Source of the DNA: a virus
Strand: one strand, 5' to 3'
IMG/VR virus record: IMGVR_UViG_3300042922_001062
Location: 1-64,000 of that record
Length of the DNA: 64,000 nt
Part shown: positions 30,325-48,154 of the stretch, one piece after another
Numbering within the stretch: position 1 is the stretch's first letter
Layout of the letters: each line of letters begins with the position of its first letter
Position numbers and translations under genes: made by a program
The notes under the pieces: model-generated
Databases searched by the model: none
Seen by the model: only the letters and a program-made list of their open reading frames with translations
What the model was told of the DNA's origin: nothing

Positions 30325-30353
30325 GGCGGCTGCGACCGCCTGGAGATCCCGAC

Positions 30354-31481
30354 ATGAACCGGATGTATTCGGTCCTCACCGTCAAGGCGGTGGAGGATGA
30401 CCAGCGCATTATCCGCGGCACCGCCACCACGCCGTCGCCGGACCGCATGGGCGATATCGTCGAGCCGCTCGGCGTGACCTTCCAGAACCCGCTGGTGCTG
30501 CTTCACCAGCACGACAGCGACCGGCCGGTCGGCACGGTCACCTTCGACAGGCCGACGGCGAAGGGCATCACCTTCGAGGCGAGGCTCCCGACGATCGAAG
30601 AGCCCGGGCCGCTGAAAGACCGCGTCGACACCGCCTGGGGCGAGATCAAGGCCGGCTTGGTCCGTGCCGTCTCCATCGGTTTCCGAGCGCTCGAATACTC
30701 GTGGATGGATGATGGCGGCATCCGCTTCATCTCCACCGAGGTGCTCGAGCTCTCTCTCGTCTCCGTTCCGGCCAACGCCGAGGCGGTGATCTCCACCATC
30801 AAGTCGATCGACGCCCCTGTGCTCGCCGCGACCGGCAAGGGGCCGAAGGCGTCCGATCGGCCTGCACCTCCCGGCGTCTCGGGGAAATCCGTCAAACCAG
30901 TGAACCTGAGGCCGAAGGAGGCCAGGACCATGAAGACCATCGCTGAGCAGATTGCTGCTCTCGAAGCGTCGCGGCAGACCAAGGCCGCGCGCATGGCTGA
31001 AGTCATGCAGAAGAGCATCGACGAGGGCCGCTCGACCGACGCCGCGGAGCAGGAGGAGTTCGACACCCTTGAGCAGGAAGTGTCCGCGCTCGACGGCGAC
31101 CTCAAGCGCCTCCGCGCGCTGGAGAAGGCGCAGGCCGCCACCGGGAAGCCGGTGATCGCCAATCAGATCCGGACGGCCGAGCAGGGCACCACCGCGCGTT
31201 CGGGTGTCACCCTGAAGTCCGCGGCGCCGGATAAGGGCATCCGCTTCGCGCGGTACGCCAAGTGCCTCGCCATCTCCACCAAGACCCATCAGTCCGTGGT
31301 GTCGGTGGCCGAGGCCATGTACGGCGGCAAGGATGACGACTTCATCGACATCGTGAAGGCCGCTGTCTCGGCGATGACCACCGGCAACACCGATGCGCTC
31401 ATCGGCAACGAGGGCGGTTTCGCCGACTTCGTGGAATTCCTCCGCCCGATGACGAGTGTCAACCAAGCGGTCGCGATTTAG
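30354..31481 (+). pseudogene. 5' part of HK97-type prohead protease-major capsid fusion, interrupted by the satellite
   Basis: Protease motifs (DRMGDIV, LHQHD, VSIGF, ELSLVSVPAN) then coiled-coil capsid N-terminus; ends 9 codons after the att repeat. Confidence 0.9.
31436..31453 (+). repeat. attL core of the satellite (18 bp direct repeat)
   Basis: ATTCCTCCGCCCGATGAC, identical to 47198-47215. Confidence 0.95.
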
Positions 31482-31501
31482 CGAACACTTTCAATATGTT
31501 G

Positions 31502-31526
31502 AGCCCGGCCGTGCGCCGGGCTTTTT
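31502..31526 (+). terminator. Rho-independent terminator just inside satellite attL
   Basis: AGCCCGGC-CGTGC-GCCGGGCT plus TTTT. Confidence 0.8.
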
Positions 31527-31629
31527 CGTTTCCGTAGTGTCCACAGCGTTCAAGAAAATCAATGGCTTACACGGGCACCCGGTGCCTCCATGCGACAAAT
31601 GAGCGACAACGTAATCGAGGGAACTGGCT

Positions 31630-31902
31630 GTGAACGCGACAAAAAAAGCCGAAGGTGAAATCCTCTACGGGGTAAAGGCCATCGCGAAGTTTCTCGGGGT
31701 GACGCGCCGGCAAGCGCAACACCTCGTCGACTCCAAGGCGGTGCCAAGCTTCAAGATGGGGCGGACGGTGTGCGCCCGGCCCGAGCGGGTGCGAAGCGTG
31801 ATTGAAGCAGCGGAGAACGGCAGGGCCGCGCCAAGCGATCAGGTGGACCAACCGCAGGACGGCGGGCAGCTTAACCTTCTCGGCGGCGGCGAACATGGCT
31901 AG
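31630..31902 (+). CDS. Excisionase/AlpA-like HTH protein
   Basis: [18 protein letters not shown]......P.FK.G.TVCAR. Confidence 0.7.
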
Positions 31903-32959
31903 CGCCAGTATGCTCCCGATCGTCACGGTGTCGAATGGCATCGTGATTGCCTCCAGCCGCGACGTGGCGGCCTATTTCGACGCAGACCATCGCGTGGTGC
32001 TGCTGGCGATCGATACGCTCATGGTTGAGGCCCCCGACGTAGCCGAGGCACACTTCCGCGAGCACCACGGCGAGGCCAGGCACTACGACATGACGCGCGG
32101 TGGCCTAGCGCTGCTGGCGCGCTCGCTGAGCGGTCCGCAGGTCGGGCGGTGGCGTGAGCGCTATCTCGAAGCCTTCGACCGCCAGCAGCGCGCGCTGGGG
32201 CAGGGCAGCGCGCTCTCGGTGCGTCAGCATCAGCCGAGTCCGTCGCCGGCGTTGGTGCCTGCCCTGCCGGACAACCTTGCCGATGGTGAGCCTCTCACGA
32301 TGTCGAGCCGGGAGATCGCCGACCTCACCGGCAAGGAGCACGACAACGTCCGCCGGGACATCAAGAACCTCGCGGATGGGCTTTCCCTCAGCTTTGAGGA
32401 AAAGTCCGAACCGTCGGCAGGCGGGCGCCCCTCGAAGGTGTTTCTCCTTCCGAAGCGTGAGTGCCTGATCCTCGTCTCGGGGTACAGCATCGAGCTGCGT
32501 GCCCGTATCATCGATCGCTGGATGGAACTTGAGGTGCGGCAGGCGGACCCGGTGGCGATGTTCAACCCGTCCGATCCGCGCATCGTGTCGGCCGTGCTGT
32601 CCCATTGGCATCAGGAGGCCACGACGGCACACGCAGCGCTTGCCAAGGCCGAGGGCACGCTGGCGCGGATCGAGACCACTGCCGGCTCTCTCTGCATCAC
32701 GGACGCTGCGAAGGCGCTCTCGCACCCGCCCAAGGCGCTGTTCGCCAAGCTCTACCGCAACCATTGGACCTATCGGCGCGGTGGCAAGGGCGATTGGCTG
32801 GGCCATGCCGACAAGTGCCGTGCCGGCCTGCTGGATCACCAGCCTACGACTTATCAGCGTGACGGCGAGACGGTGATCGGCACGCAGGTCGTCGTGACAC
32901 CCAAGGGATTGCGGAAGCTGGCCGAGCTGCTCGCTCACGATCCGGATTGGAGGGACTGA
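31895..32959 (+). CDS. Rha-family regulator with two Rha domains and a C-terminal ANT/KilA-C domain
   Basis: ASSRDVA..F...H and [31 protein letters not shown]; [16 protein letters not shown]. Confidence 0.8.
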
Positions 32960-33186
32960 TGCCCGACATCATCGACGTCGACTGGGAATGCTGTGACGCC
33001 GAGGGTGAATCCTTTGAGCACCACGCCGAGCCGGACAAGGTGGCGGAAGGCCTGCTGATCGACGAGCCAGTGCTGGTGCGCTACCCCAACGGCCGTATAG
33101 CTGATGGCAACCGCATCGTGGTGACGGAGCGTGGCCTGGAGGCGCTGAAGTCCTTCGTCATCGAGGAATCGAAGGGCAGCCACTGA
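32959..33186 (+). CDS. Small acidic hypothetical protein
   Basis: RBS GGAGG; TGATG coupling. Confidence 0.55.
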   Translation: MPDIIDVDWECCDAEGESFEHHAEPDKVAEGLLIDEPVLVRYPNGRIADGNRIVVTERGLEALKSFVIEESKGSH

Positions 33187-33377
33187 GGGGGGGAGGTCAA
33201 AAGGTCAGACGGCGTCCGTCTCTGGACCGGCGCCCCCTACATGCAGAGATTTTTTCCTCCCTGGACAAATTCGGGGTGCGTACCAGCGCCGCGTACTACG
33301 TAATATCCATATGATATCAGGCAGATAGCCTCGGTACGCACCCTGCGTACCGCGCGTACTAAGTGCGCACTGCGTAC
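33187..33377 (+). repeat. Satellite copy of the helper packaging site plus GCGTAC cluster
   Basis: 33224-33271 identical (48 bp) to 28000-28047; similarity continues to about 33297. Confidence 0.9.
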
Positions 33378-33482
33378 CACTGATAGCAGAGGCCCCGGGG
33401 GGGTATGCGGAACGTCAGGGACGCCCTTCTCTGCACCGGCGGCCTCACCAAAACTCTCGCAAAGCCAGATTGAGGTCCCGGA

Positions 33483-33854
33483 ATGTCTAATCTGGCTTCC
33501 GAGATGAGCTTCGCGGCGCGCGTCGATGAGCGCGAGCGGATGATGCTGCAGGCGATCAGCCATGCGGGATGGTGGATGTCGCCCGACGGCCGGATCGGCG
33601 AACGGGATGCCGCGGCGCTCCTGGGGTACGGACACCCGGATTCATTCCGGAACGCGAGACGTCGCGCGGATCCTGGTGGGTGGCCACGTGTATTTCGCCT
33701 CGGCGGGAACGGAAACAAGCTGACCTATCAGGTCCGAGATCTGGCGGAGTTCGTCGAGCGCAAAGCAAATCCGCCGGCCGAAACCTACGATATTTTCCGC
33801 AAAGTCAATCGCGCGGGATCGGCGCTCTCCGACGCCCGTCGTAAGCTTGCTTGA
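33483..33854 (+). CDS. Hypothetical HTH-like protein
   Basis: ERDAAALLG..SFRN.R..P......YQVRDLAEFV. Confidence 0.55.
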   Translation: MSNLASEMSFAARVDERERMMLQAISHAGWWMSPDGRIGERDAAALLGYGHPDSFRNARRRADPGGWPRVFRLGGNGNKLTYQVRDLAEFVERKANPPAETYDIFRKVNRAGSALSDARRKLA

Positions 33855-34903
33855 CCTTGATAAGGAGCGAGCTGATGCGCATCAATTCCGCCGGACACCT
33901 GCCCGCGATCATGGGCTTTCTCGCCCGGGCGCACCTTGCCGGTGTTTCGCCCTTGGAGATCGCGGCGAAGGATGGTGCTCCGCCCGACCTTCAGCTCCTC
34001 GTCAGGGCTGCGACCGGTGCCGTCATGCTCGGCGACGTCGCTGCTGCTGGCGCGCTGCGCGCGGCGGTCGAAACCTTCATCGGGACGCTGCGCGGGCGCT
34101 CCATATTCTACACGCTCCTCGCTGATGGCGCGTTCGTCCGCGCGCCGATCCGCACACGGCTCACAGCAGTCGAGAACGGCGTGGTCGCCTACGTCGTGAG
34201 CGAGGGGCGTGCGAAGCCGGTTTCGAGGATCGGGCTCGACGCCGCGGGACTGGAACGCGCCAAGGCCACTTCGCTCATCGTGCTGACGCGCGAGGCTGTG
34301 TACGCATCCTCGCCGGCGCTGCTCGACTTCCTGACCTCTGAGCTGCAGGGCGCGGTCTCGGCGGCCGTCGACGCGGCCTTCATCGCAAGGATCATCGACG
34401 ACGGCTCGCCGAGCCTCACGCCGACCTTCAGCGCGTCGGGAGCGGGCATCGACGACATCAGGTTTGACCTCCGGCGACTGCTCGACGCCGTGAACGTCAC
34501 GGGCAGCGGCCATCTGGCATGGCTGATGTCGGCAGACGTCGCGAACCGCCTCGCCGTGCTCGTGGAGCACTTTCCCGGTATGGCGCCGAACGGTGGGACA
34601 TTGCTCGAGCAGCCGGCCTTCGTTTCCGAGGCCATCGACCCGGGCTCGCTGCACTGCCTCAACGCCGCGTCGATCGCGGCGGACAGCGAGGCCATCATCG
34701 TGCGGTCCAGCGACGTCGCCAGCGTCGTTATGGATACCGCCCCAGCGCAGGACAGCTCCACGCCGGCGGCGACGCAGAACGTGTCGATGTTTCAAACCAA
34801 CTCGACCGCCGTGCTCGCGGAGGCGTTTTTCGGAGCGCAACGGGTGCGGCCGAACGCGCTGGCGACGCTGACGGACATCGCCTGGGGCGACGTGGCCTCA
34901 TGA
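33851..34903 (+). CDS. Satellite-encoded HK97-fold capsid protein homologue
   Basis: VSEGRAKPVS, WLMS, VSMFQTNSTAVLAE align with helper WVGEGKGKP, WVMS, VSMFQTNSVAFRAE. Confidence 0.85.
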   Translation: MTLIRSELMRINSAGHLPAIMGFLARAHLAGVSPLEIAAKDGAPPDLQLLVRAATGAVMLGDVAAAGALRAAVETFIGTLRGRSIFYTLLADGAFVRAPIRTRLTAVENGVVAYVVSEGRAKPVSRIGLDAAGLERAKATSLIVLTREAVYASSPALLDFLTSELQGAVSAAVDAAFIARIIDDGSPSLTPTFSASGAGIDDIRFDLRRLLDAVNVTGSGHLAWLMSADVANRLAVLVEHFPGMAPNGGTLLEQPAFVSEAIDPGSLHCLNAASIAADSEAIIVRSSDVASVVMDTAPAQDSSTPAATQNVSMFQTNSTAVLAEAFFGAQRVRPNALATLTDIAWGDVAS

Positions 34904-35727
34904 GCAGGGTCGATCCCGCTACCGCAGCAGCGCTGAATAAAATTGACGTCCGCGTCGCGGAGATCGACGCCGCGCTCAAACGCCTCGACGCTGATGACTA
35001 CAAGCACTTCAAAGATTTGCACCGCGCCGGTGCAAACGAGAAGGTGCGGCAGCAGCTCAACGCGGAACGCGCGGTGCAGATGCACAACCGGGCGCGGGTG
35101 CTCGCAGGCGAGCCGGTTGAACAGCCAGCACCCACGGAGCAGGCCAAGGCACTGCGGCTGCCGCCGGTGGAGCTCTATGGCAAGGCCGAGCGACCCTGCA
35201 GAATCGAGCCAGCCATTACCCGCAGAGACGACTTGGTCGGCGTTGGCGATAGAACCGCCGATGAGATTCTCGATGTCGCCGAAGTTGAAGAGCGCGTGTC
35301 AGCGGACATCGCGCAGGCGATCGAGGTCGCCCACGCCAAGATGCGGGAGGCAATGACGCGCAATCCCACGTACGCGTTCGACTTGTCGACGCTGATCATG
35401 CTGAAGACCACCATCATCCAGGCGATGGCGCAGGCGACAATCATCGAAGCCGTCGGCGGTGTGCTGCGGCGCGAGCTCGAGGTGAAGCTCACCGATCGGA
35501 TCGCAGTGCTGGAAAAGCGGATCGAGGAGTTTGAGCGCGGCGGCTTCGAGTATCGCGGCATCTATCAGCGCGCCCAAGCCTACAGACGAGGTCAGGTCGT
35601 CACCCATGACGGAAGCATGTGGGTGGCCGCCAAGGACACCGTGCTGCCGCCGGGCGCGCCGGAAGGCATGAACGAGTGGACTTTGGCCGTTAAGCGTGGC
35701 CGGGACGGGAAGGACGCCACCCGATGA
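34900..35727 (+). CDS. Satellite homologue of the helper post-portal protein C-terminal domain
   Basis: YRGIYQ..Y.RG..VTHDGSMW..WTLAVKRGRDGKD vs helper YRGVFK..GDTVTWAGSLW..WTLAAKRGRDGKE. Confidence 0.8.
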   Translation: MSRVDPATAAALNKIDVRVAEIDAALKRLDADDYKHFKDLHRAGANEKVRQQLNAERAVQMHNRARVLAGEPVEQPAPTEQAKALRLPPVELYGKAERPCRIEPAITRRDDLVGVGDRTADEILDVAEVEERVSADIAQAIEVAHAKMREAMTRNPTYAFDLSTLIMLKTTIIQAMAQATIIEAVGGVLRRELEVKLTDRIAVLEKRIEEFERGGFEYRGIYQRAQAYRRGQVVTHDGSMWVAAKDTVLPPGAPEGMNEWTLAVKRGRDGKDATR

Positions 35728-35943
35728 AAGAGCAAGCCGTCGCCCTAACGAAGCGGTGCGTTGCGGCCTTCGTCGAGAAGATGGGCAGGCAGCCGGATGC
35801 GCACGAGCTCGATCTGCTCGCTGCGGCCGCGTGCCGGCATCTCCAAGACCGCGAGCACATGCGCCGATGGCCCGCCGCGACGGCGTCCGGATCTTCCACG
35901 GTGAACTAGCTCAAGCCTAGACCTCATAGCCTTAGGTGAGGCG

Positions 35944-36234
35944 ATGCCAAACTCAGAGATGCTCACAACTTACTCCCATGGTACCGTTTCAGTGACCAAG
36001 GGATCAAAGACCGTCCGGGGCAAAGGCGTTTTCTGGCTGGACGTGCGGTCGTGCGACAGCCTCGAAGCCGGGGACCGCTGCCTCACCACCATCGCCTCAG
36101 TAGACGCGACCGATTTCACCACATTGGAGCTTGCTGTGCCTTGGTGCGGCGAGACAGCGGAGGACGTCCCTTACGTGATCCGCTTCGACGCTCCGCAGCG
36201 ATTTCCCGGCTACAGGGGGCGCGCCGATGGCTGA
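35944..36234 (+). CDS. Stand-alone tail-fibre N-terminal domain
   Basis: YS.GTVSV..TIAS..LELAV..DVPYV.RFDAP shared with 36227. Confidence 0.65.
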   Translation: MPNSEMLTTYSHGTVSVTKGSKTVRGKGVFWLDVRSCDSLEAGDRCLTTIASVDATDFTTLELAVPWCGETAEDVPYVIRFDAPQRFPGYRGRADG

Positions 36235-37324
36235 CCTCTACAGCACCGGCACCGTCTCGGTGCCCAGCGGTGGCACGACTGTTACGCTGACCGGGGGGCT
36301 CTTTAGCGGTGTTCTCGCCGGCGATACGATCGAGATCGGCGAGCTTCCCGCGAAGACGATCGCATCGCCGACCGACGCCAGTCATCTGGAACTGGCCGTC
36401 GCGGTGACGTCCGATCAGGTGGATGTCCCCTATGTGCTTCGCTTCGACGCCCCGTCGCGCTTCACCTCCGGCTATCTCGCGGAGCAGGTGCGGGCGCTGA
36501 TCGCGCAGGCGGGCATCATCAAGGCCGCCCGGCCAAACTACGAGGTGCAGAGCCTCGGCGGCAACGCACCGCCTGGCTCTCCTGTGACGGGAGACATGTA
36601 CGTCGTCGGCACCGCGCCGACCGGCGCATGGGCTGGGCGGGCGAATAATTTGGCGCAGTGGACCGGCTCGGCGTGGCTGTTCACAGCGCCGGATCGAGGA
36701 ACGACGGTCGTTAGCGTGGCGACGGGTATTGTGTCGATCTGGGGCGGCGCGGCGTGGCTACCTTACATAGGCCCTGGCGCTTTCATGCAGACGCTGATGC
36801 CGGCGGCGACGCAGGCCGCGGCGCAGACTACGCTTGGGCTCGATAGGGCCGCCCGCACGCTCTGGACGGCGGATATCTCCACTCCTGTCGCGGCGATTAA
36901 CGTCCCGCTCGCGGCGGCGTATCGGGCGTTCAAGCTGACCATCGGCTGCCTCACCGGCTCGGATGCGACAGCCAACTTGATACACCGCATCAGCCGCGAC
37001 GGGTCCACGGTCGACACGGGTGCATCGGACTATCAGGGGTCTGCGCTTGTTGTCGTGGGTAGCGGAGTTTCCGCGGCGGCGCGGACGGCGTCGGATGCGT
37101 TTCTCGGCACGTTGACGGCCACGATGGTAGCAATGGACATCACGCCTGGCGCGGCCGGTCTGCCGTACATGTGCACTTCCCAGTCTATGGAGTTCGCCTC
37201 TGGATATCGTCTTGATTTCCGCGGTACCCGTGCCGCGAATGTCGGGCGCGCTCAGTTCATCCAGATCTACCCGTCAGCCGGCAATCTGACTGCTGGGACG
37301 CTGACGCTGGCCGGGTATCCGTGA
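36227..37324 (+). CDS. Tail fibre / receptor-binding protein with DUF2793
   Basis: APPGSPVTGD.YVVG..PTGAWAG....LA.W...AWLF.AP. Confidence 0.75.
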   Translation: MADLYSTGTVSVPSGGTTVTLTGGLFSGVLAGDTIEIGELPAKTIASPTDASHLELAVAVTSDQVDVPYVLRFDAPSRFTSGYLAEQVRALIAQAGIIKAARPNYEVQSLGGNAPPGSPVTGDMYVVGTAPTGAWAGRANNLAQWTGSAWLFTAPDRGTTVVSVATGIVSIWGGAAWLPYIGPGAFMQTLMPAATQAAAQTTLGLDRAARTLWTADISTPVAAINVPLAAAYRAFKLTIGCLTGSDATANLIHRISRDGSTVDTGASDYQGSALVVVGSGVSAAARTASDAFLGTLTATMVAMDITPGAAGLPYMCTSQSMEFASGYRLDFRGTRAANVGRAQFIQIYPSAGNLTAGTLTLAGYP

Positions 37325-37370
37325 CGCCCGCCGCCGGGCTTCGAGGTGGTGGCTCGGCGGTCAGATATGA

Positions 37371-37396
37371 AAAAGGCCGCCCCGAAGGGCGGCCTC
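37371..37396 (-). terminator. Terminator of 37410..37727
   Basis: AAAAAGGCCGCCCCGAAGGGCGGCCT. Confidence 0.7.
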
Positions 37397-37409
37397 TCTC
37401 ACCGTCCGG

Positions 37410-37727
37410 CTAGCACGGTGTCTGCTTATTGGTGCAATCGCGACGGCCGTCATCCGAATTGCCGCTGCCGGCGGCCTTGGCCTCGCCGGGGTTCATGGAG
37501 TTGTTGCGCCCCTCGCTGGGCATGGTCGATTTCGGCACACCGGAGCCAACGGCCGGGGACTGGTCCTTGTAGCGGCTCTCGGTGGTGCCCGAGCTATTGT
37601 CGGAGCCGGTTGTAGCTCCCGCCGTGGAACCCGAGTTCCCTTGGCCGCTGCTCTGGGCCATCACAGGTGTGCCGAGCGCCAGTAATGCTGCCAGCGTGGC
37701 GATGGAAGTCGTCTTGGCATAGTTCAT
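37410..37727 (-). CDS. Small secreted low-complexity protein (moron)
   Basis: Signal peptide (..LLALGTPVMA); RBS GAAGGAGG. Confidence 0.7.
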   Translation of the reverse strand: MNYAKTTSIATLAALLALGTPVMAQSSGQGNSGSTAGATTGSDNSSGTTESRYKDQSPAVGSGVPKSTMPSEGRNNSMNPGEAKAAGSGNSDDGRRDCTNKQTPC

Positions 37728-37751
37728 GAGTTCCTCCTTCGATATGAGGCG

Positions 37752-37776
37752 AACCCACAGCTCTAGATGACGTTCC
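37752..37776 (-). promoter_or_regulatory. EcfG-type promoter
   Basis: Minus strand GGAAC-N16-GGTT. Confidence 0.65.
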
Positions 37777-37941
37777 GACCAAATTGGCCGCTGAGGTACA
37801 CGGCTAATGCACCTCGCGCCAACGTGAGCACTTTCCTGCCAGGCGGCTATGTCGATTTATTCCTTCCGCGAATCGTCAATCATCGCCTCGATGGCCCCGA
37901 TCATCACTTCGAGGTCGGCGATCAGATGCAGTAACGATTTG

Positions 37942-38055: not shown

Positions 38056-38066
38056 GAGCATCTCAC

Positions 38067-39632: not shown

Positions 39633-39647
39633 CGAACCTTAGTTCGT

Positions 39648-42077
39648 TCAGGCAGCCGCAGGCTTTTGCCGAGCCACGTACATTGCCATAGGCACGCACG
39701 GCAAATGGTGATTCGAGCTCGACATGAGGAGCAATCGGTTCACGTTGTTGTCCTGGAACCCGCCGATCCGTATCACCGATTGCAGCCATCCGATGGAATG
39801 CGGCACTCTGGCCTTCTTGATAAGGCGTTGGATGGCTGTCCTACTTCGGGAATGTCGCGCCGCCAATTGCGCTTCGAAGTTTGGCTTCACTTCTTCCGCC
39901 TTCAGAGACTTTAGGTAGTTGAACGTGCGACGGATCACCGATCGGAACTCGACGAATTCAGGTGCTTCTCTCAAGCTAAGGATATCGTCGCACTGGGTCG
40001 GAAACTCCAGTGGGGCTGACCGGATGTCTGCCGCAAGCGAATGTAGCGTCGATGAAGTTCCCAAATAGCGGCGGTTCAAAGCTGCGTTCAGCTCCAGCCA
40101 ACGATGCTTGCTGTCAGTGAGGATCTGCGCCCCCGTGGCTTGCGCCAAATACATGGCGATTTCGAAGTTGGGTGCCAACTTCATGAGCTGGATCTGTCCA
40201 CCTGTTTCGGGAGCCAAGCTCTCCGGTTGGAGCACGGCAAGCGGGTCGGCCTCTCGGAGCTGGCCGATTTGCGGCATCAGTTCGTCGAGATCGACTGTTT
40301 CGCCCTGCGGCATTGCTCGAGCGATCTGATTGCGTAGCCCCTCTTCGGACAAAGCGAGGAGTGTGCGCTTGAAGTCGTCGCGCATCAGTTCCTCCATCCG
40401 AGGGTCGTTTGAAATCTCGAACTCAAGGCCGGATGCCCGCGCCCTGGCCATCGCCATCATTTGATCGCGCAGGTGGATGTCGAAGTCACAAGGATCGGGG
40501 ATCAGGTTGACCAGACCCGCCTCGACCAACGGCATCATGCTCACGAAGAAATGGATCGTCTTCAACAGTTCGCCCCGGTACTGACCCGGGTGCTCGGTCG
40601 GACGGAATTTCTTATTCAGGGTGCCGGGGTGGACGAAAGGGTGCTGAATCAGCATTTCACCGAAATACAGCGGCGAACCAATCGCGAATTCGTTGATGTG
40701 CTGGGGATGGAGGGAGCCGGTATAGACCGATCGAAGCTGCCCGTCCGGCTTTGGGAGTAAGTCGAGCAGGTCGGTTTCCAGTGGCCATAGGCCTTCGTAA
40801 AGGCTATAGGCACTTGCAATCTTTTCGTCGGTCATCTCGCGCCGAACTTGGGTCCAGTCCTTTCTGTCCAGTTCAAGGAGGTTCGACAAGCCGCGGAGAA
40901 GCATAAGGTTTCGCTCGCGGATGCTCCTAGCCGTCCAGCTCGGCCTTAGCTCGGATGGCTTCGGCTCGCAGCATCTGGCGAAGAGGTCGCCGGACCCACA
41001 ACCACAAGAGTCCTTCGGTTTCAGCGGTGACACCGGCAGATCCTTTTGAAGGAACGCGCGCGGCTTTTCTGACCGGCCAAACTCATCCTGATAGTGAACA
41101 TGTCCGCTGTCGAATTTGGCAAACATTTCACCGCCAAAAAGGTGGAGTTCGGTCTCTGGTGGTCGTAGTGTCTCCCGCAACTCCTTCCAAGATTTCTTCA
41201 CCGTTTTCTCTGGATAAAGCCATGCCTCGCGTCCAGCAGCGATGTATCTTTCGGAGCGAGCCTTGAGGATGAAGTTGATCTCCGAGACTTGTTGATCATC
41301 GAGTTCGCGAGACCGGATGAAATCGATCGTCGATACCATCGTCGGATGAAAGTTCCGAGCGAAGGTCCGGTTCTCAAGCGGATTCACGTCCGGGTTCTTT
41401 GCATACTCAAGATTTGTCAGGATCAGGCAGTGGTCTGGTCCCAGAGGGAAGATGGTCTGCGAACCTTTCCATGCAATTGCCGGATCGTCGGTTTGGTCGC
41501 AACCAAGGTCTGCGGGAGGAGCAGCATAGTTATAAATCGTTACCGGATGGTCGGTAATGATGAACTTGACAGAGGCATTTCCCGCCGAGACAATCTCCCG
41601 GACGCCAGTGGTCCAAATGGTACAATTGAGAAAACGAATACCCTGCATCTCAAGCATAAGCTCATTCTGGGAAAGCTCAGGGTACTGTCGCTTTAGCCAC
41701 TCTAGGCCCTTTGGAGTGCGAAGCTTTTGGATGTCGATATACTCGAAAAAGGTCTTGAAGTGGGAGTGCCATGCGGCCTTGTCCAAGCCAGAGAGGGCGC
41801 GGACCGCGTCCGCGCCGCGGGTGTCAATGTCGCCGAATAGTTGTCGCTCGATTTCATCGTTTACCGCCGTTCCAAAGAATGTTGAATAAAGATCCCTTTG
41901 AACGAACGCACGGGATGTTGGAGAGTCAAACAATGACCGCCCTGTGTTTTTTCCTCCATCCCTCCGTGTGAAAATCGGCGGTGACAAGTCGAGATAGAAT
42001 AAGGTTCTGCCTCCGTCGGTGAGGAAGCGTTCTTGATACCATTGGGGAACGTAGTGATTATTTCTTCTTACTGACAT
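39648..42077 (-). CDS. DUF4238 plus SEC-C motif protein (candidate anti-phage)
   Basis: NNHYVPQWY, FIITDHPV, IFPL.PD.CL; CGCGSG..F..CC; lower GC. Confidence 0.75.
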   Translation of the reverse strand: MSVRRNNHYVPQWYQERFLTDGGRTLFYLDLSPPIFTRRDGGKNTGRSLFDSPTSRAFVQRDLYSTFFGTAVNDEIERQLFGDIDTRGADAVRALSGLDKAAWHSHFKTFFEYIDIQKLRTPKGLEWLKRQYPELSQNELMLEMQGIRFLNCTIWTTGVREIVSAGNASVKFIITDHPVTIYNYAAPPADLGCDQTDDPAIAWKGSQTIFPLGPDHCLILTNLEYAKNPDVNPLENRTFARNFHPTMVSTIDFIRSRELDDQQVSEINFILKARSERYIAAGREAWLYPEKTVKKSWKELRETLRPPETELHLFGGEMFAKFDSGHVHYQDEFGRSEKPRAFLQKDLPVSPLKPKDSCGCGSGDLFARCCEPKPSELRPSWTARSIRERNLMLLRGLSNLLELDRKDWTQVRREMTDEKIASAYSLYEGLWPLETDLLDLLPKPDGQLRSVYTGSLHPQHINEFAIGSPLYFGEMLIQHPFVHPGTLNKKFRPTEHPGQYRGELLKTIHFFVSMMPLVEAGLVNLIPDPCDFDIHLRDQMMAMARARASGLEFEISNDPRMEELMRDDFKRTLLALSEEGLRNQIARAMPQGETVDLDELMPQIGQLREADPLAVLQPESLAPETGGQIQLMKLAPNFEIAMYLAQATGAQILTDSKHRWLELNAALNRRYLGTSSTLHSLAADIRSAPLEFPTQCDDILSLREAPEFVEFRSVIRRTFNYLKSLKAEEVKPNFEAQLAARHSRSRTAIQRLIKKARVPHSIGWLQSVIRIGGFQDNNVNRLLLMSSSNHHLPCVPMAMYVARQKPAAA

Positions 42078-42134
42078 TGCCCTTTAGCATCGCTCCCGCC
42101 GCTAGTTGCTGCAATTCTTACCGGCTTGGGCGAA

Positions 42135-43397
42135 TTAAGGATGGCCTCGCAGCGCGATCATCTTGTTCGCGACACGGGCGGCCAAGTCGGAATGAAACTC
42201 CTCAAGGCTCTCCGCGGCTTCGATGAGGGCTTCGTCGGCACCGTCATCGTCCATCGCTTCGACCAGCTGCTCGACCTGTTGCGCAAGCTCTTCGAGCGCC
42301 TGATAGAGCCGGGTGCATTGGTCCAGAGTGAGCGACGGGTCGGCGAGGGCAGCGGGGACATCCTTGGCGAGATGCTTCGCCCTCTCGCCGCGCTCGCGCA
42401 GCAAAGTCATCCAGTCCGTCGCCATGTCGACGCGCTCCAGCAAAGCCGTCAGCTCCGCCCGTTTCAGGGTCGCCTCGATAGTGGTCTCCTTCAACGCAGG
42501 TCCGCCGGGGCGGTGGGGGGACGTGACGGCCGCCCGAACGGCCAGTGCGCTCGATGGTGGCGCAGCGCCGATCGTGGCCATGAAATCCCCTTCGGGCACG
42601 ATGCGCACGATATGGCCGGCGGCGAGCATGGCTTCGGCCTTGAGGTGCTTCGCGCTCTTGGGCGTGCCGAAATGCACGTCTCGATCGCCGAGCACGAGCA
42701 TGGTGGTGTGGCGGGTGACGCCCGGATGAACGTCGGCGCCAGCGGCCGCGGCAAGATCGGCCGCGGCGCTCTTGCCGAGCTCCAGCTTGCCGGTGAACAC
42801 CACGACCTGGCCCGACAACGGCCCGTCGCCGACAGCCTCTCGGCGGATCGGAGCCGCCTTCTCGCCGGAGACCGGCAGTTCAACGCGGCGGAACCAGCCG
42901 TCCAGGTCCAGGCCGGTTTCTTCCATGGCGCGGTGCAGGATCACGCCGGCGGCGCGCGCGTCCTCAAGAGCGTCGTGGTGACGGAAGGCGATGCCGAACT
43001 CGGCGGCAATGATCGGCAGGCTGTAGCTCGCCCTGTCGGGCCATGCCCGCCGGGCGACGCGGATTGTGTCGAGCCAGCGGTTGCCGACGGATGCCAAGCC
43101 ATGGCGATCGCAGGCCCGCATCAGCGACGTCCGGTCGAAGGGTCCATGGCTGATAACGGGCCGGTCACCGAGAGCATTGAGAAGCCAGTCGTGCCGGTGG
43201 CGGAAGGGCAGGCACCCCGCGACGGCTTCCTCGTCGATGCCATGAATGCCGACGTTAAAGGCGTCGAAATAGTCCTCCGGGTCGATGAGGTGACATTCGG
43301 CGTGGATCTCTCTGCCGCCATCGAACACGACGACGCCAAGCTGGCAGATGCTGCTGTAGTTCGCGTTCGCGGTTTCTACATCGATCGCGACGAACAT
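42135..43397 (-). CDS. DEDDh 3'-5' exonuclease with BRCT domain
   Basis: FVAIDVETAN, HHDALEDA; GQVVVFTG.L..VT..TT.LV.G. Confidence 0.85.
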   Translation of the reverse strand: MFVAIDVETANANYSSICQLGVVVFDGGREIHAECHLIDPEDYFDAFNVGIHGIDEEAVAGCLPFRHRHDWLLNALGDRPVISHGPFDRTSLMRACDRHGLASVGNRWLDTIRVARRAWPDRASYSLPIIAAEFGIAFRHHDALEDARAAGVILHRAMEETGLDLDGWFRRVELPVSGEKAAPIRREAVGDGPLSGQVVVFTGKLELGKSAAADLAAAAGADVHPGVTRHTTMLVLGDRDVHFGTPKSAKHLKAEAMLAAGHIVRIVPEGDFMATIGAAPPSSALAVRAAVTSPHRPGGPALKETTIEATLKRAELTALLERVDMATDWMTLLRERGERAKHLAKDVPAALADPSLTLDQCTRLYQALEELAQQVEQLVEAMDDDGADEALIEAAESLEEFHSDLAARVANKMIALRGHP

Positions 43398-43468
43398 GGC
43401 TCCCTCCCATACCTTCCGGAAGGTTGCACATCGGCTCCGTTCACGGCAAGCGCGCCTGTTCTGCGACG

Positions 43469-44317
43469 CTACTCGGTGAGCAGCCCCGCCAAACGCCCCT
43501 TTGCGATAAGATAGCTAACAAAGGAAGCGCACGCTCCCAGCATGAACAACGCGTCAGCCTCGTCGACGTTCGCGGCGTCTTGGTCGAGCAGCGAGTGCCG
43601 TATGCCTTTCTCGTCGCTGGCATAGCCATAAAGGGCCGAGAATCCTTTCTTCATTGCCTCGTGGATGGCGCCAGCCTTTTCCAGTTTGACCAGAGCGGGG
43701 CCAAGTGTAGTCGATCCCGGCGCTAGCTGTACTGCGACCGCTTCAACAGCATGGATAGCTTCGCGCACGCAGTCCGGATACTTTCCTGCAGTGGCAGCTT
43801 CTATCGAGGACCTCAAATGGGCATAGGCGCCGGTGATGCCGACAGCGCGTGCGGACTTGAGTGCTGCTTCGAGAGCTGCAGCCTCCGTCGGATCGGTTAT
43901 GGGGGCAATAGTATCCCCGTCGACCACGCGATAAGCTGCGTGACAATTAACTAAAACGTCGGCAATATGCTTGCGGAATGCGGCTGGCGTATAATTGAAT
44001 CTTAGTATCCATTCAATAAATCCAAAAACTTCTACGTAGTCGCCGTTCTCTATAATTGTCTGAATTCGTCGTATTTGTTGAAAGTGCAAAGAAATGTATT
44101 CACTAGAGAATCTATTTTGATGAAATACAAACTCCGCCTTGAGAATTGCATTCCATGGCTCGGCAACGGTGTGGTCGCCGCGCCTTGGAAGAACATGCAT
44201 GTCGAACACGAAGAACAATTGAGCCCTCAGTTGAGGGGAAAGTTTTTTCAAGGCGAGTTGCGTTGGTAACGGTGCGCGACCTTCGGCTTGCTCAAAGGAG
44301 ACTAATTTCCTGTCCAT
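43469..44317 (-). CDS. AbiJ-like N-terminal domain plus HEPN-like protein (candidate abortive infection)
   Basis: SFEQAEG..LR..L, EVFGFIE, REAIHAVE, LYGYASDEKGIRHS; AT-rich. Confidence 0.6.
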   Translation of the reverse strand: MDRKLVSFEQAEGRAPLPTQLALKKLSPQLRAQLFFVFDMHVLPRRGDHTVAEPWNAILKAEFVFHQNRFSSEYISLHFQQIRRIQTIIENGDYVEVFGFIEWILRFNYTPAAFRKHIADVLVNCHAAYRVVDGDTIAPITDPTEAAALEAALKSARAVGITGAYAHLRSSIEAATAGKYPDCVREAIHAVEAVAVQLAPGSTTLGPALVKLEKAGAIHEAMKKGFSALYGYASDEKGIRHSLLDQDAANVDEADALFMLGACASFVSYLIAKGRLAGLLTE

Positions 44318-44346
44318 GATCCGCCCCACTTCCAATGCGTGGCAAC

Positions 44347-44549
44347 CTGCCATTGGAGTACCGGCAGCGCAATGAGCGCCTTCGCGATCCCCTCTTGGCG
44401 GAGGGGGCGAAGCAGCGCATAAATGGGATTGGGCTTGAACACCCGGACGAAAGTTATAGCGCGACGCCCTTGGCGGGGCTTGGCGCCGAAGCACAGCGCC
44501 CTTGGCGGGGCGGTGTGCAAGGTCGCACCTTGGCGGGTGCGCCGGACCT
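44347..44549. ncRNA. Candidate structured RNA: four hairpins with TTGGCG loops
   Basis: Hairpins at 44389-44406, 44466-44479, 44491-44518 and 44524-44541 have different stems and the same loop. Confidence 0.6.
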
Positions 44550-44694
44550 GGCCATCATGGCCGGGAGCGGTGCGCTATGTCCAGAGGGTACGCCCTTAAA
44601 AGCGCGTCGGCCTGTAACTTTCGCAGGTGTTCAACTCCCGGCTGCCGGTCTGCTACCGGCGACGGCCTTGAACAGCCGAACGAAAGTACATCCC

Positions 44695-45090
44695 ATGAAC
44701 ATGAACGCCAGCCGGCCGAGACCGGCCAGCATCCCACCGACCGAGGTCGCGCGGAAGCTTCTCGACATCCGTCACGACCTCCAGCGCGAGCTTCAGCGCG
44801 TGGACACCCTGCTTGCAATGCTCGGCGCCCCGGTGGCGGCGGCAGGGTGTCAGCCGGACACTCCGGCGGGACGTGGCCCCAATTTCGGGGAGACGTCGGC
44901 GAGTGATCTCCTCTATGGAGCGCCAGCCATTGCGGGCTATCTTGGCCTTACCGAGAAGCAGGCCCGGCACCGTATCGAGGCGGGGAATATTCCGGCCTTC
45001 AAGATCGGCGGCACGGTGTGCGCCCGCCAATCCTCCCTGTCCACATGGCTCGCGAACCTCGAAGCCGCAGCCGCGCATGCGGAGGACTGA
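44695..45090 (+). CDS. Excisionase-like HTH protein, paralogue of 31630
   Basis: LLYGAPAIAGYLGLTEKQARH..IPAFKIGGTVCAR. Confidence 0.7.
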   Translation: MNMNASRPRPASIPPTEVARKLLDIRHDLQRELQRVDTLLAMLGAPVAAAGCQPDTPAGRGPNFGETSASDLLYGAPAIAGYLGLTEKQARHRIEAGNIPAFKIGGTVCARQSSLSTWLANLEAAAAHAED

Positions 45091-45092
45091 TC

Positions 45093-45344
45093 ATGCTGGT
45101 GGATCATGATTTCGGCGGACTGCTTCCGCCGGCAAGCGTCGATCGCATCGCCACGCGCCGCGCGCTCGCGTCGATCATCGAGCGGGCGCTCGCGCTGCGG
45201 GATGCCCTCGATGATGACGCCGATCTTGAGGAGTGCGGCGACGCCGAGCCCAGCCTCGGTGCATCGGAGGCAGGCGCGCACTTCTGGTCTCAGATCGGAT
45301 GGGCGAGGGGAGGCGACGGCGACCTTGAATGGGGGGGGTCATGA
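45093..45344 (+). CDS. Small acidic hypothetical protein
   Basis: RBS GGAGG; DALDDDADLEE..AEPSLG. Confidence 0.55.
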   Translation: MLVDHDFGGLLPPASVDRIATRRALASIIERALALRDALDDDADLEECGDAEPSLGASEAGAHFWSQIGWARGGDGDLEWGGS

Positions 45345-45760
45345 CCGTGCGCTCTATGCTCTCGGTGGTCGGGGGAACTGACCTCGCGGAGGGTATGCCC
45401 AAATTTGGGGGTACCCCCTTCCGCTCCTCCAAGGTGTTCATCAACCCCGACTGGTCGGCCATCTGCCACGCACTGGAAGGTATCGACCCTGAGCACCTCC
45501 AGACGGCGCCCATAGCGTCGCTGGTGGCCGGTATGGAGGCGCGCCTGCGGTTCTGCTGCCAGACGCTCTCCCTGCCGTCCTACGCGTGGCAGGAGGGCCA
45601 TACGGCCATAGCGAAGTGCCTCGACGATGCGTCGGCGCTCTCCGACTTCGCGGCGCAGTGGGGAATCTCCACAGACTGGATACTACTAGGGGACGCCCGC
45701 TCCTATGTTCGGGTGCGCACCTTCGGCGCCGCCGGTAGCATCCGCTGGGCCGCTGACTGA
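45341..45760 (+). CDS. Hypothetical protein with XRE-like C-terminus
   Basis: FAAQWGISTDWILLG. Confidence 0.5.
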   Translation: MTVRSMLSVVGGTDLAEGMPKFGGTPFRSSKVFINPDWSAICHALEGIDPEHLQTAPIASLVAGMEARLRFCCQTLSLPSYAWQEGHTAIAKCLDDASALSDFAAQWGISTDWILLGDARSYVRVRTFGAAGSIRWAAD

Positions 45761-45891
45761 CTATCCGCCCGGCGCCGCCTCGCGCTGGCGCCGGGCATTT
45801 CGATACGACATGAGAATTTCATCAAGGCATTGAGCATGCTGGGCTTTCCCGGGCTTCCTAAAGCTGCATGCGACAACCGAGGCAAATCACC

Positions 45892-47190
45892 ATGGCGAGT
45901 GTTCGCAAGCGCAAGTGGATCCACAACGGCAAAGAGGGTGAAGCGTGGGTCGTCAACTATACCGACCAGGGGGGCAAGCGCCGGCAGAAGGCTTTCGACC
46001 GGAAGAAGGAAGCCGACGCTTATCGGACGGAGATCGAAGCGGAGATCAAGCAGGGAGTGCATACTGCTCTCAACGAGAGCGTGAAGGTCTCTGAGGCCGT
46101 GCGGGCGTTCTGCGTCGACTGCCAGAAGCGCGTGACGGCAGGAACGATGACGAATGGAGGATTCAAGAGCTACCGATGGAAGCTCGAAAAGTACGCAGTG
46201 CAGAAGTTCGGCACCCGCAAGGTTTCCACGATCACGGCTGAGGAGGTGCAAGATTGGGTGGACGAGTTGCTGCGGACGCTGTCGCCGACCTCTGTCACGG
46301 GCATCTACGTGGCCTTCGGCGTACTGCTATCGTTCGCGGTCCGGCGCCGTTGGGTGCGTAGGAACATCCTGCGGGACATGCCGTGCAAGCTACCGGCAAG
46401 GCCAAAGCGCAAGGCGGTGCCGACCAAGGCAGATATTTTGGCCCTGATGCACGCCGCATCTACGATGGAGCGCGGCGAGAACCTCCTGACGTTCGTCAAT
46501 CGGCTGGTCGTTGTGGCCTGCGGCGTGTTCGGCGGCTTCCGCCCTGGAGAAACGTTCGGCCTTCAATGGGAGGACGTCGACTGGCAGAAGGGCGTCATCC
46601 ACGTCCGCCACAGCCACACTAAAATGGACGGGCTGAAGGCGCCCAAGACCGAGGCGGGATATCGCGATGTTCCAATAACCGCCCCCATTGATCGGGCCTT
46701 GCGGCAGTGCGCGCGCTACTGGACGATCCGCCGGCTTGCTGAAGGGCCGGGTTTCGGCAGCGATCACCCGAAGGCGATCTTCTCGCGGATCGCGCGCATG
46801 TGGGAGGGCGAGTTTATCGCGGTGCGGCCGGAGGACCTGAAGGGGTTCGTAATCCTGACCAAGGTGGGCAAGCCGATGACGGCGACGGCGAGCGCAACGA
46901 CGTTCTGGTCCCGGCTGATGAAGGCGGCGGGCCTGCAAACGGAGGACGGGAAGAACCGCTTCACGCCGCACGCGCTGCGCCACGCCGCGGCGAGCCTGCT
47001 TATTGAGGCGGGTCTCGACGACATGAACCTGAAGCGCTTCATCGGGCACGCCTCGATCCAGACGACGAAGGATATCTACGGGCACCTTTTCCCGACAGAC
47101 GAACGGATGGTTGCAACAACGGCAGCGATTGCGCGCGATCTGGACGCAACAACAGAGCGACAAACATCTGTAAGGCACCCGCTGCAATAG
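45892..47190 (+). CDS. int: Satellite tyrosine integrase
   Basis: GFRPGE, PKT, HALRH, IGHASIQTT.DIYGH; stop 7 nt before attR. Confidence 0.93.
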   Translation: MASVRKRKWIHNGKEGEAWVVNYTDQGGKRRQKAFDRKKEADAYRTEIEAEIKQGVHTALNESVKVSEAVRAFCVDCQKRVTAGTMTNGGFKSYRWKLEKYAVQKFGTRKVSTITAEEVQDWVDELLRTLSPTSVTGIYVAFGVLLSFAVRRRWVRRNILRDMPCKLPARPKRKAVPTKADILALMHAASTMERGENLLTFVNRLVVVACGVFGGFRPGETFGLQWEDVDWQKGVIHVRHSHTKMDGLKAPKTEAGYRDVPITAPIDRALRQCARYWTIRRLAEGPGFGSDHPKAIFSRIARMWEGEFIAVRPEDLKGFVILTKVGKPMTATASATTFWSRLMKAAGLQTEDGKNRFTPHALRHAAASLLIEAGLDDMNLKRFIGHASIQTTKDIYGHLFPTDERMVATTAAIARDLDATTERQTSVRHPLQ

Positions 47191-47197
47191 GAAAAAT

Positions 47198-47215
47198 ATT
47201 CCTCCGCCCGATGAC
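47198..47215 (+). repeat. attR core of the satellite
   Basis: ATTCCTCCGCCCGATGAC. Confidence 0.95.
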
Positions 47216-48089
47216 CATCGTCGGCCGCTTCGGCACCGGCAACATCCCGGCGCTGACCCGCATCCCCTTCCGGGTGCCGCTGATCTCGGAGACCTCCGAG
47301 AGCGACGCCCAGTGGGTCGGTGAGGGCAAGGGCAAGCCGCTGACCAAGTTCGGTGTCGGTCGCACCGAGCTCACTCCCCTGAAGATCGCCACCATCGCTG
47401 TCCAGACGATGGAACTCATCCGCGACAGCTCGCCGTCTTCGGACGTGCTGGTGCGGAACTCGCTGGCGAAGGCCATCGCGAAGCGCACCGACCTCTCGTT
47501 CATCGATCCGTCCTCGGCGGCTTCCGCCGGCGTCCGCCCGGGTTCGGTTCTGAATGGTGTCGCCGCCACGGCGAACAGCACGGCCACGGGCGCCGACGGT
47601 GTCCGCGAGGATGTCCAGGCGATCATTGGCGCCTTCGTGGCGGCGAACAACCCGCTGCAATCCGGCGTCTGGGTGATGTCGGCGACCTACGCGCTTCGGC
47701 TCATGATGATGCTGAACCCGCTGGGCCAGCGCGAATTCCCCGGCATCACGATGCAGGGCGGCACCTTCTTCGAGCTGCCGGTCATCGTGTCGAACTACCT
47801 CGGCGACTACGTAGCCCTGGTCAATGCCGAGGACATCTGGTTCGCCGATGAAGGCGGGGTCGACGTCGCCATGTCGACTGAAGCGTCGCTGGAGATGGTG
47901 GACAACCCGACGCAGGACAGCGGCGCCGAAACTCCGGTCGATTCCGAGATGGTGTCGATGTTCCAGACCAACTCGGTCGCCTTCCGCGCCGAGCGCACGC
48001 TGAACTGGGCGCGCCGCCGCTCCAGCGCGGTAGCGTGGATGGACAACATCACCTGGAGTGATCCGGCCGAAGAGAGCGCCGGCGTCTGA
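47211..48089 (+). pseudogene. 3' part of the helper major capsid gene
   Basis: WVGEGKGKP, SMFQTN..AFRAER; joins in frame with the 5' part across the repeat. Confidence 0.9.
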
Positions 48090-48154
48090 TCGCCGCCGCG
48101 CGAATGAGCCGGCCGCGATCATGCGGCCGGCTTCCTCTTGATGGGGAGGCTTCC

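Follow-up and report, generated by a model that had tools for sequence, protein, structure and literature searches.

The sequence analysed here (the window) comprises bases 1-64000 of the 79,477-bp IMG/VR record IMGVR_UViG_3300042922_001062. It carries the packaging and late genes of a prophage, called the helper below, and these genes are interrupted by a 15,762-bp element, which is the subject of this report. The element is delimited by the two copies of an 18-bp direct repeat, ATTCCTCCGCCCGATGAC, which occurs exactly twice in the window; no such 18-mer pair was found in 100 shuffles, even with two mismatches allowed. The last gene of the element encodes a tyrosine integrase, and 7 nt lie between its end and the right copy. 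The repeat and the position of the integrase had both been pointed out in an earlier reading of this DNA (the original prediction), and both were confirmed.

The repeat lies in a helper gene that encodes a prohead protease, a scaffold and the major capsid protein as one fusion. The N-terminal fragment is an open reading frame (ORF) for the protease followed by a long coiled coil, and its stop codon is situated nine codons past the left repeat, inside the element. The right repeat copy lies at the start of the ORF of the C-terminal fragment. When bases 30354-31453 are joined to 47216-48089, a frame of 1974 nt and 657 amino acids is obtained, which has no internal stop and reads ..FADFVEFLRPMTIVGRFGTGN.. 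(also given as ..FVEFLRPMTIVGRFG..) across the junction. The in-frame protease-capsid fusion proposed earlier is thus correct, and uninterrupted homologues of the joined protein were found. In the Pseudomonas phages IME307 and PAJU2, the two fragments match neighbouring stretches of a single 'capsid and scaffold' gene (667 aa), at 18758-19894 and at 19898-20740, with 44% identity over 99% of the length of the N-terminal fragment, and the gene order TerS-TerL-capsid-portal is that of the helper. Intact homologues of 667-708 aa are also present in three genomes of the Microvirga lupini family, and they align over the junction without insertion or deletion. In the whole 79.5-kb record, the only Phage_capsid matches are the two helper fragments and a paralog within the element.

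These findings show that the tyrosine integrase put the element site-specifically into the one gene of the helper for protease, scaffold and capsid, at its EFLRP(M)T codons. What remains is a truncated protease-scaffold protein and a C-terminal capsid fragment that has no promoter. The split gene is the only capsid gene of the helper, and the element is co-oriented with the late operon. A PDB sequence search with the helper fragments gave the Bxb1 capsid as its sole match, from which the maturation cleavage site could not be placed. For annotation, capsid genes split as they are here make prophages appear defective, though these are perhaps functional.

Contigs of four public runs (X1, X2, X3 and X6) were compared with positions 29500-48900 of the window. 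In run X1, the probable source of the record, single contigs span attL (29500-33253) and attR (39588-48900) with zero differences and with an even depth of 41-47 over both junctions. The assembly chimera against which the original prediction had warned is therefore unlikely, and no sign of it was seen at either junction. The empty site is seen in X2 and X3, which are plant metagenomes of study P2, and in X6 ('organism A', study P3): in each, one contig passes directly from 31435 to 47198 and skips the 15,762 bp; record 29 of X6 spans 31177-31435 and 47198-47918 with 3 differences in 980 nt. A near-identical helper with an intact capsid gene circulates free of the element, and the boundaries of the element are therefore fixed to the base. 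The same finding contradicts the earlier claim that the satellite is always inherited with its helper, since the helpers in these three runs lack it.

Of the junction forms to which the original prediction had drawn attention, the empty attB site is thus present in contigs of X2, X3 and X6, and the circular attP form is known for a relative of the element, while contigs of X1 contain the integrated form only. The relative (L059, IMGVR_UViG_3300004213_000426) is a contig of 10,756 nt with an exact terminal overlap of 56 nt, and a contig from another metagenome (L136, Ga0210040_10010097) is a circular permutation of it, 99.96-100% identical. At their junction, after the integrase stop codon, AATATTCCTGCGTCC is joined to AAGAACGAGCAT; the order is right arm, core and left arm of the family, and the junction is therefore an attP. 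One family member thus exists as a free circle or concatemer of 10.7 kb in two metagenomes. The features of the locus are collected in Table 1.

Table 1. Features of the split capsid locus, the element and the adjoining helper genes (positions in the window).
Feature	Position	Strand	Evidence or remark
Helper HNH endonuclease, packaging module	27159-27536	+	phrog_589, 2.6e-23; no Pfam match at E<=0.01
Helper cos-like site between HNH and TerS	28000-28074	+	96% over 75 nt to element copy 33224-33297
Helper TerS	28079-28648	+	phrog_1206 terminase small subunit, 1.2e-30
Helper TerL	28645-30324	+	TerL_ATPase and TerL_nuclease
Helper protease-scaffold-capsid gene, N-terminal fragment	30354-31481	+	Peptidase_S78
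attL core, left repeat copy	31436-31453	+	Contigs of X2, X3 and X6 pass from 31435 to 47198; the 18 nt fit both sides
Terminator-like GC hairpin and T-run, just within the element	31501-31533	+	Consensus match only
Small HTH_17-like (excisionase/AlpA-type) protein, first gene past attL	31630-31902	+	HTH_17 E = 0.002 to 1e-5, below Pfam cut-off
Rha/antirepressor (Ant) protein	31802-32959	+	Phage_pRha 1.2e-27; ANT KilAC 1.3e-18; phrog_63 1.2e-48
Element copy of helper cos-like site	33187-33297	+	Followed by GCGTAC repeats to about 33380
Candidate small DNA-binding protein, 123 aa (Cox/HTH_17-like, lead only)	33483-33854	+	ESM Atlas neighbours are Cox/HTH_17-like clusters, score 0.90-0.92, TM 0.52-0.54
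Element major capsid paralog, HK97 fold, no protease domain, 350 aa	33851-34903	+	Phage_capsid 9.6e-8; phrog_617 positions 312-626 of 626
Coiled-coil protein, start codon not fixed	34903-35727	+	Last 56 aa match C-terminus of helper collagen-like protein 49626-51146
96-aa protein like N-terminus of tail/fibre proteins	35944-36234	+	phrog_24607, phrog_28473
Tail fibre variant, helper-type N-terminal anchor and unrelated C-terminal tip	36227-37324	+	DUF2793
DUF4376 protein (below cut-off)	38067-38504	+	DUF4376 4.6e-5, 24.3 bits vs cut-off 25; phrog_27624 (no assigned function) 2.5e-13
DUF4238 protein, 809 aa, cargo	39648-42077	-	DUF4238 1.3e-14; no PADLOC match
DEDDh exonuclease, candidate defence protein	42135-43397	-	RNase_T 2.3e-12; PADLOC PDC-S48 2.9e-23; weak sub-threshold BRCT-like match
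AbiJ-N-terminal-domain protein, candidate defence protein	43469-44494	-	AbiJ_NTD4 1e-9; PADLOC PDC-S32 5.6e-54
Second HTH_17-like protein, upstream of integrase	44695-45090	+	HTH_17 E = 0.0019, below cut-off; phrog_18541 4.2e-9
Tyrosine integrase, pointing outward to attR	45868-47190	+	Phage_integrase 8.6e-22; phrog_1 4.9e-58; ends 7 nt before right repeat
attR core, right repeat copy	47198-47215	+	Exact repeat; empty-site contigs
Helper capsid gene, C-terminal fragment	47211-48089	+	Phage_capsid 2.2e-15; 59% identity to IME307/PAJU2
Helper portal, downstream of split gene	48515-49873	+	Phage_portal 6.2e-81

The element is one of a conserved family whose members are inserted at the same codon of the capsid gene. 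Four relatives, whose integrases are 63-68% identical to that of the element, have the integrase directly upstream of a capsid C-terminal fragment. They are found in the isolate genome of Microvirga lupini AT3.9 (L025), a Microvirga metagenome-assembled genome (MAG; L026), the provirus IMGVR_UViG_2843075475_000002 (L058) and a metagenome contig (L137). Integrases that are 63-75% identical sit either at this capsid-gene site or on the circular attP form. The first three relatives also have the N-terminal fragment, the HTH_17-like first gene and the capsid paralog, and their elements are 9.6-10.5 kb long. The cores of the relatives, TTCCTCCGGCC or TTCCTGCGGCC, fall on the same EFLRP codons, and their helpers are diverged, with capsid fragments 55-88% identical to that of the window helper. 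The capsid paralog is present, as an intact ORF, in all five family members examined. The Microvirga MAG element contains in addition tail-assembly, gp10-like and tape-measure-like genes, and the M. lupini element a PC4-like protein and an acetyltransferase. In L058, a prohead protease paralog (5104-5652), 39% identical to residues 1-213 of the helper N-terminal fragment, follows right after the capsid paralog.

The ties of the element to its helper are seen in the DNA. Identities were taken from blastn rows; tblastx was swamped by compositional matches and was not used. There are only two long identities between element and helper: 33224-33297 with 28000-28074 (96%), and 36237-36757 with positions 64899-65419 of the record (82%). 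The second corresponds to the tail fibre genes. The first 180 residues of the element fibre are 85% identical to the helper fibre encoded at 64889-66082 of the record, with 82% DNA identity over 521 nt, and the remainder of the protein is unrelated.

The first identity concerns the helper sequence between the HNH and TerS genes, which has the layout G-run, GGGTCAAAA, about 24 nt, GGAC-CGGCGCCCCC. This layout is mirrored at the ends of two GenBank phage records. In D3, an HNH gene is located just upstream of the right end of the record, TerS is at its left end, and the right end reads GGGTCAAAACC, 24 nt and GGACACCGCGCCCCCA; the PAJU2 record likewise reads TCTAGAC, the break, and then CGCGCCCGAAAG. 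The two records break on opposite sides of a shared motif of 9-10 nt (the CGCGCCC motif is matched), which is what a cohesive end would give, and the sequence is therefore read as a cos site. The argument rests on the ends of these two records; the cohesive ends of D3, which we take to be 9-base 3'-extended, were not used in it. The M. lupini element contains a 57-nt, 96% copy of the HNH-TerS intergenic sequence of its own helper, and the Microvirga MAG element a 40-nt, 97.5% copy, together with a second one of 90%. The HNH-TerS sequences differ among the three helpers and each element matches its own; in three of the four element-helper pairs tested, the cos copy co-varies with the helper. 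The cos copy, its co-variation with the helper and the fibre anchor therefore indicate a parasite adapted to the helper lineage rather than an accidental insertion.

The gene content of the element (31454-47197) was examined by profile searches (Pfam, PHROGs) of its main candidate ORFs, which were GC3-selected or long, and statements below on what the element lacks refer to these searches. The first gene past attL is 46-48% identical to the genes at the same position in the Microvirga elements. The 123-aa protein that precedes the capsid paralog has no Pfam or PHROG match. The paralog itself shares 32% identity with the capsid domain of the helper (E = 2e-27). Its structure model has a mean pLDDT of 55.8, with the D3 and HK97 capsids as top PDB matches, and because of this low confidence only the family-level match was used. 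The C-terminal 56 residues of the next, coiled-coil protein are 50% identical to the helper collagen-like protein (E = 4e-13). The fibre module extends over 35944-38504, and the DUF4376 protein at its end is guessed to be a fibre accessory from its place after the fibre gene. The last 99 nt of the fibre gene (37211-37309) recur with 76% identity at 37942-38040, where a 68-aa ORF ends shortly ahead of the DUF4376 gene; this repeat may be what is left of a second fibre tip cassette. The DUF4238, exonuclease and AbiJ-NTD genes form a minus-strand block of 4.8 kb with lower G+C (0.52-0.59 for the DUF4238 gene). Three genes then complete the element: that of the second HTH_17-like protein, a 143-aa ORF and, last, the integrase gene. 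The searches found no terminase, portal, tail tube, primase, Rep or helicase. The gene set listed in the original prediction (a packaging-site copy, a capsid protein, a head-associated protein and a tail fibre, with no Rep and no terminase) thus holds.

Upstream of the second HTH_17-like gene, at 44389-44690, there are four short hairpins with the common loop TTGGCG, CCCTCTTGGCGGAGGGG, GCCCTTGGCGGGGC (twice) and GCACCTTGGCGGGTGC. After them, the words TTGAACACC...CGAAAGTTA are repeated and inverted before the ATG at 44695. A C4/CI-type RNA switch was proposed for this region and was not supported, as Rfam gave no match at E<=1; at the same threshold, neither C4/isrK nor any other convincing RNA family was matched in the whole of 31000-48200.

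The 15,762-bp unit is, in our judgement, quite probably a phage satellite that lives inside its helper prophage and has roles, proposed below, in its own excision, packaging, head formation and fibre exchange. From the gene structure, we infer that excision gates the production of helper capsid. After induction of the helper, the integrase and the HTH_17-type directionality factor, encoded by the first gene past attL, which has the same orientation as the late operon, would excise the element. Excision would make the capsid gene whole again and the late operon continuous; while the element is integrated, transcription of the downstream portal and tail genes would be lowered by the hairpin just within attL and by the 4.8-kb antisense block. 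The helper HNH, TerS and TerL proteins would recognise the cos copy and package the 15.8-kb DNA. The capsid paralog might then build or remodel heads for a genome of about 30% of the size of the helper genome, in the manner of SaPIbov5 Ccm, and the element fibre, with the helper anchor and another tip, would give the particles a different receptor specificity. The minus-strand block would be defence cargo, and Ant may target the repressor of the helper, like epsilon of P4. For a packaging substrate that has no replicase, passive replication within the composite before excision, as proposed for HE-PICIs (see below), would be the simplest answer. If the composite is inducible, it would offer a tractable system, as the Microvirga lupini AT3.9 isolate carries a relative and the host has its nearest named relative in Ancylobacter novellus DSM 506. 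Such a system could be used to ask how the timing of excision relates to helper yield, how the paralog relates to head size, and whether a satellite retargets particles built by its helper.

Several observations weigh against this interpretation. The element has no replicase, no iterons and no DnaA-box cluster (4 matches against 3.6 expected), and the HTH_17 assignments fall below the Pfam cut-off. The att sites of the helper were not found in the 79.5-kb record, nor were its integrase and right end, which leaves it a putatively competent helper only. The excision joint was not seen in the contigs of X1, which contain the integrated form only, although contigs drop rare variants and are uninformative on excision. 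In the L058 element, no copy of the cos region of its resident helper was detected, nor any helper-element repeat of at least 18 nt beyond chance-like matches. The Microvirga MAG element has two cos-like copies, 2.3 kb apart (2420-2430 and 4718-4728), each ahead of a gene cluster. The similarity of the second copy extends up to a start codon, and the tail-assembly, gp10-like and tape-measure-like genes follow it; such an arrangement suits a promoter at least as well as a packaging site. The 75 nt shared by element and helper could also be, or contain, a late promoter or operator.

The last points lead to a different explanation, in which the 75-nt block is a late promoter or activator site and not cos, so that the element borrows the late transcription of its helper and is packaged, if at all, by another route. 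The position of the block directly upstream of gene clusters in helper and element alike speaks for this, as do the two copies in the Microvirga MAG element. Its motif layout, however, is that of the physical genome ends of D3 and PAJU2, and the block has HNH on one side and TerS on the other, which is the arrangement in those cos phages. We therefore hold a promoter in place of cos to be rather improbable; the two roles are compatible and do not exclude each other. Somewhat less probable still is a dead-end insertion, where a defence-carrying integrative island inactivated the prophage, is not transferred with the aid of the helper and contains phage-like genes only as debris. The lack of replicase, terminase and portal, the defence-type cargo, the purely integrated form in X1 and the helper integrase that was not identified would all agree with such an event. 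It would leave unexplained why the same codon is used in five diverged helpers, why three elements each copy the cos-region sequence of their own helper, why the fibre anchor is 85% identical to that of the helper, how a relative circulates as a 10.7-kb circle in two metagenomes and why the capsid paralogs are all intact ORFs. That the nesting is merely an assembly chimera of two unrelated elements is very improbable indeed. The assembly is of metagenome type, the record is described as 'linear' at its ends and its completeness is estimated at 86%, but the contigs of X1 bridge attL and attR, the same nesting occurs in the isolate genome of Microvirga lupini AT3.9 and in other records, and an 18-bp duplication with in-frame restoration is unlike the outcome of a chimera.

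A variant of the satellite interpretation concerns the head. The paralog alone might assemble satellite heads with the free 375-aa protease-scaffold fragment and with the portal, terminase and tails of the helper, possibly before excision. The paralogs are HK97-type proteins of full length (348-410 aa) that have a helical leader at the N-terminus and include the region homologous to the att site; the L058 element has a protease paralog too, and the truncated helper ORF retains the entire protease and coiled-coil part. On the other hand, the paralog is just 32% identical to the helper capsid domain, its acceptance by the helper protease or portal is hypothetical, and the confidence of the model is low (mean pLDDT 56). 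We regard this variant as unlikely, though it deserves more weight than the three explanations above.

The helper is roughly a 52-kb (element removed) cos-type, PAJU2/IME307-like siphovirus prophage of an Ancylobacter novellus-like soil bacterium. The AI-2E transporter gene at 45-1013, which flanks it, is 99% identical to its counterpart in Ancylobacter novellus DSM 506 and is followed by a tRNA-Asp gene (1127-1203). No partial repeat of this tRNA gene occurs elsewhere in the 79.5-kb record, and the 445-aa ORF that adjoins it has no Pfam or PHROG match. The early genes of the helper are of the DnaN, DnaA, MT-A70 and SNF2 types; within 15045-18851, there are genes for a beta-clamp-like protein, for a full-length DnaA-like protein in which all three Pfam domains are present, and for an MT-A70 methylase. 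The late genes beyond the portal encode a collagen-like protein, head-tail and tail proteins, a tape measure and a tail-tip protein, and, past the window in the same record, the DUF2793 fibre (64889-66082) and a lysozyme. The collagen-repeat protein (49626-51146) contains 162-nt tandem units at 50295-50618. G+C drops to 0.52-0.57 at 12001-13000 of the window and at 70001-76000 of the record, from about 0.65 elsewhere, and the stretch past the lysozyme gene of the helper may represent a further island.

Integrases that are more distantly related to that of the element (32-47% identical) likewise have truncated late genes directly after them, and only one of these loci, L063 (G641:C1:37933-52416), was verified on both sides. 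In L063, the integrase is followed by a lambda-E-type capsid gene covering profile positions 114-329, and the N-terminal part (1-122) lies 13.4 kb upstream on the same strand. The integrase of L143 precedes a TerL that lacks about 80 N-terminal residues, and that of L064 a C-terminal stub of TerL and then the portal, the position in TerL being different from that in L143. A ClpP-type protease fragment follows the integrase in L139, and a GpJ-like tail-tip protein follows it in L067. In L060, the integrase relative lies directly upstream of an 833-aa frame without a family. L067 (integrase 36% identical) also contains, at 7635-9247, the same pair as the element, an AbiJ-NTD protein (56% identical) and a 251-aa HTH_17 ORF (55%), in the same divergent arrangement upstream of the integrase, which suggests that the pair is a conserved regulatory or defence module. 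All named relatives among the 180 proteins that match the integrase at E<=1e-30 belong to the Alphaproteobacteria, including Paenirhodobacter, Shinella, Ancylobacter and Azospirillum. In an order-wide sample, 2 of 401 genomes had a match at E<=1e-40, and, against the integrases of 50,697 phage records, the identity does not exceed 26%.

Phage satellites are generally recognised by the lack of essential virion and packaging genes together with a packaging signal matched to a specific helper, and by its sequence the element combines the two. For helper-dependent induction, packaging and transfer, the other general trait of satellites, the one hint is indirect and comes from the circular relative in two metagenomes. 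As the original prediction had noted, its gene set does not match those of P4, the phage-inducible chromosomal islands (PICIs), the capsid-forming PICIs (cf-PICIs) or the PLEs. P4, with its helper P2, resembles the element in having an integrase, a cos that matches the helper, a genome of about one third of that of the helper, defence cargo and an antirepressor against the helper (epsilon in P4, the candidate Ant here). Unlike P4, which integrates in a tRNA gene and not in its helper, the element has no detectable homologue of Sid, Psu, Delta or the alpha primase (Pfam/PHROGs) and no C4/isrK-type RNA (Rfam, E<=1). The cos satellites of the SaPIbov5 type (PMC5052747, PMC8569155) likewise have no terminase, use the helper cos site and encode a homologue of the helper capsid protein; their Ccm fills the capsid pentamers and forces small heads, and redirection of head size by the element paralog is putative. 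SaPIbov5 differs in being a chromosomal island of Gram-positive bacteria that is not embedded in a helper, is repressed by Stl and has its own primase/replicase; the Stl/Pri-Rep core of PICIs is absent from the element (Pfam/PHROGs). The cf-PICIs also encode their own HK97-fold capsid protein, but they have the whole head module (portal, protease, connectors and TerS), whereas the element has the capsid protein only and one relative a protease paralog in addition. Marine VEIMEs are without capsid genes. As with the elements of regulated gene integrity and active lysogeny, skin in sigK and phi10403S in comK, excision restores a split gene and would time its expression; here, in contrast to those cases, the split gene belongs to another virus and the insert has the hallmarks of a parasite of that virus.

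The closest parallel is provided by the helper-embedded PICIs (HE-PICIs; Tommasini, Mageeney and Williams 2023, PMC10111431). According to the available text of that paper, to which the following comparison is confined, there are 491 such elements at 14 sites in nine lambda-type late genes, all in Enterobacteriaceae, and their integrases form a single clade within the P4/PICI group. In these elements the integrase and AlpA are upstream and are followed by Bro-network genes, a zone for the primase and a late zone in which captured capsid genes lie; sequence of the cos region is common to element and helper, and terS is absent. A TBLASTN survey by the authors returned no phage-surrounded relatives of their integrase outside the Enterobacterales. 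The element described here is similar in many respects. It sits in a late gene of a prophage, co-oriented with it, and the capsid gene is the commonest target of HE-PICIs; the target gene is disrupted, attP brings no replacement sequence and precise excision would restore the gene. Cos-region sequence is again held in common with the helper in the absence of terS, capsid and other late genes have been captured, a Rha/Ant-type (Bro-network) protein is present and the integrase relatives strike several different late genes.

There are also differences from HE-PICIs. The hosts of the element are Alphaproteobacteria (Ancylobacter, Microvirga), and its integrase is remote, as seen from the comparison with phage records above. 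The integrase gene is the last one and points outward to attR, whereas in HE-PICIs it lies upstream beside alpA and points inward; the upstream end of the element is occupied by the HTH_17-like gene and Rha/Ant. The searches detected neither a primase nor a replication zone, the gene hit encodes a protease-capsid fusion of the HK97 type, and the element carries a fibre with the helper anchor and a new tip. Because host class, integrase, gene order, target, the lack of a detectable replication module and the fibre variant all differ, the element is placed outside the HE-PICI family, though the principle, including capsid targets, cos sharing and captured capsid genes, is known from it. The suggestion that the element is a distinct type therefore stands for its lineage, integrase and layout, and falls for the principle, which had been published. 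What is new is the lineage: its hosts are Alphaproteobacteria, its integrase clade is remote, its layout differs, it has no primase and it carries a variant of the fibre; a fibre with the helper anchor and a changed tip, and the apparent lack of a replicase, are not reported for HE-PICIs in the available text of PMC10111431.

Helper-embedded satellites, so far documented only in Enterobacterales and in one integrase clade, are now extended to soil- and plant-associated Alphaproteobacteria and to a remote integrase, and the finding hints that tropism for late genes arose more than once. We give an even chance to the broader proposal that a second, alphaproteobacterial integrase clade, unrelated or remotely related to that of HE-PICIs, independently evolved tropism for prophage late genes: the HK97-type capsid fusion, the lambda-E-type capsid, two TerL sites and probably the ClpP protease and tail-tip genes. 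Its members would be replicase-less satellites that gate capsid synthesis of their helpers, make a capsid protein of their own and are able to swap the receptor-binding tip of the fibre. If this is true, embedding in the helper is a recurrent, convergent strategy of satellites and not an enterobacterial curiosity.

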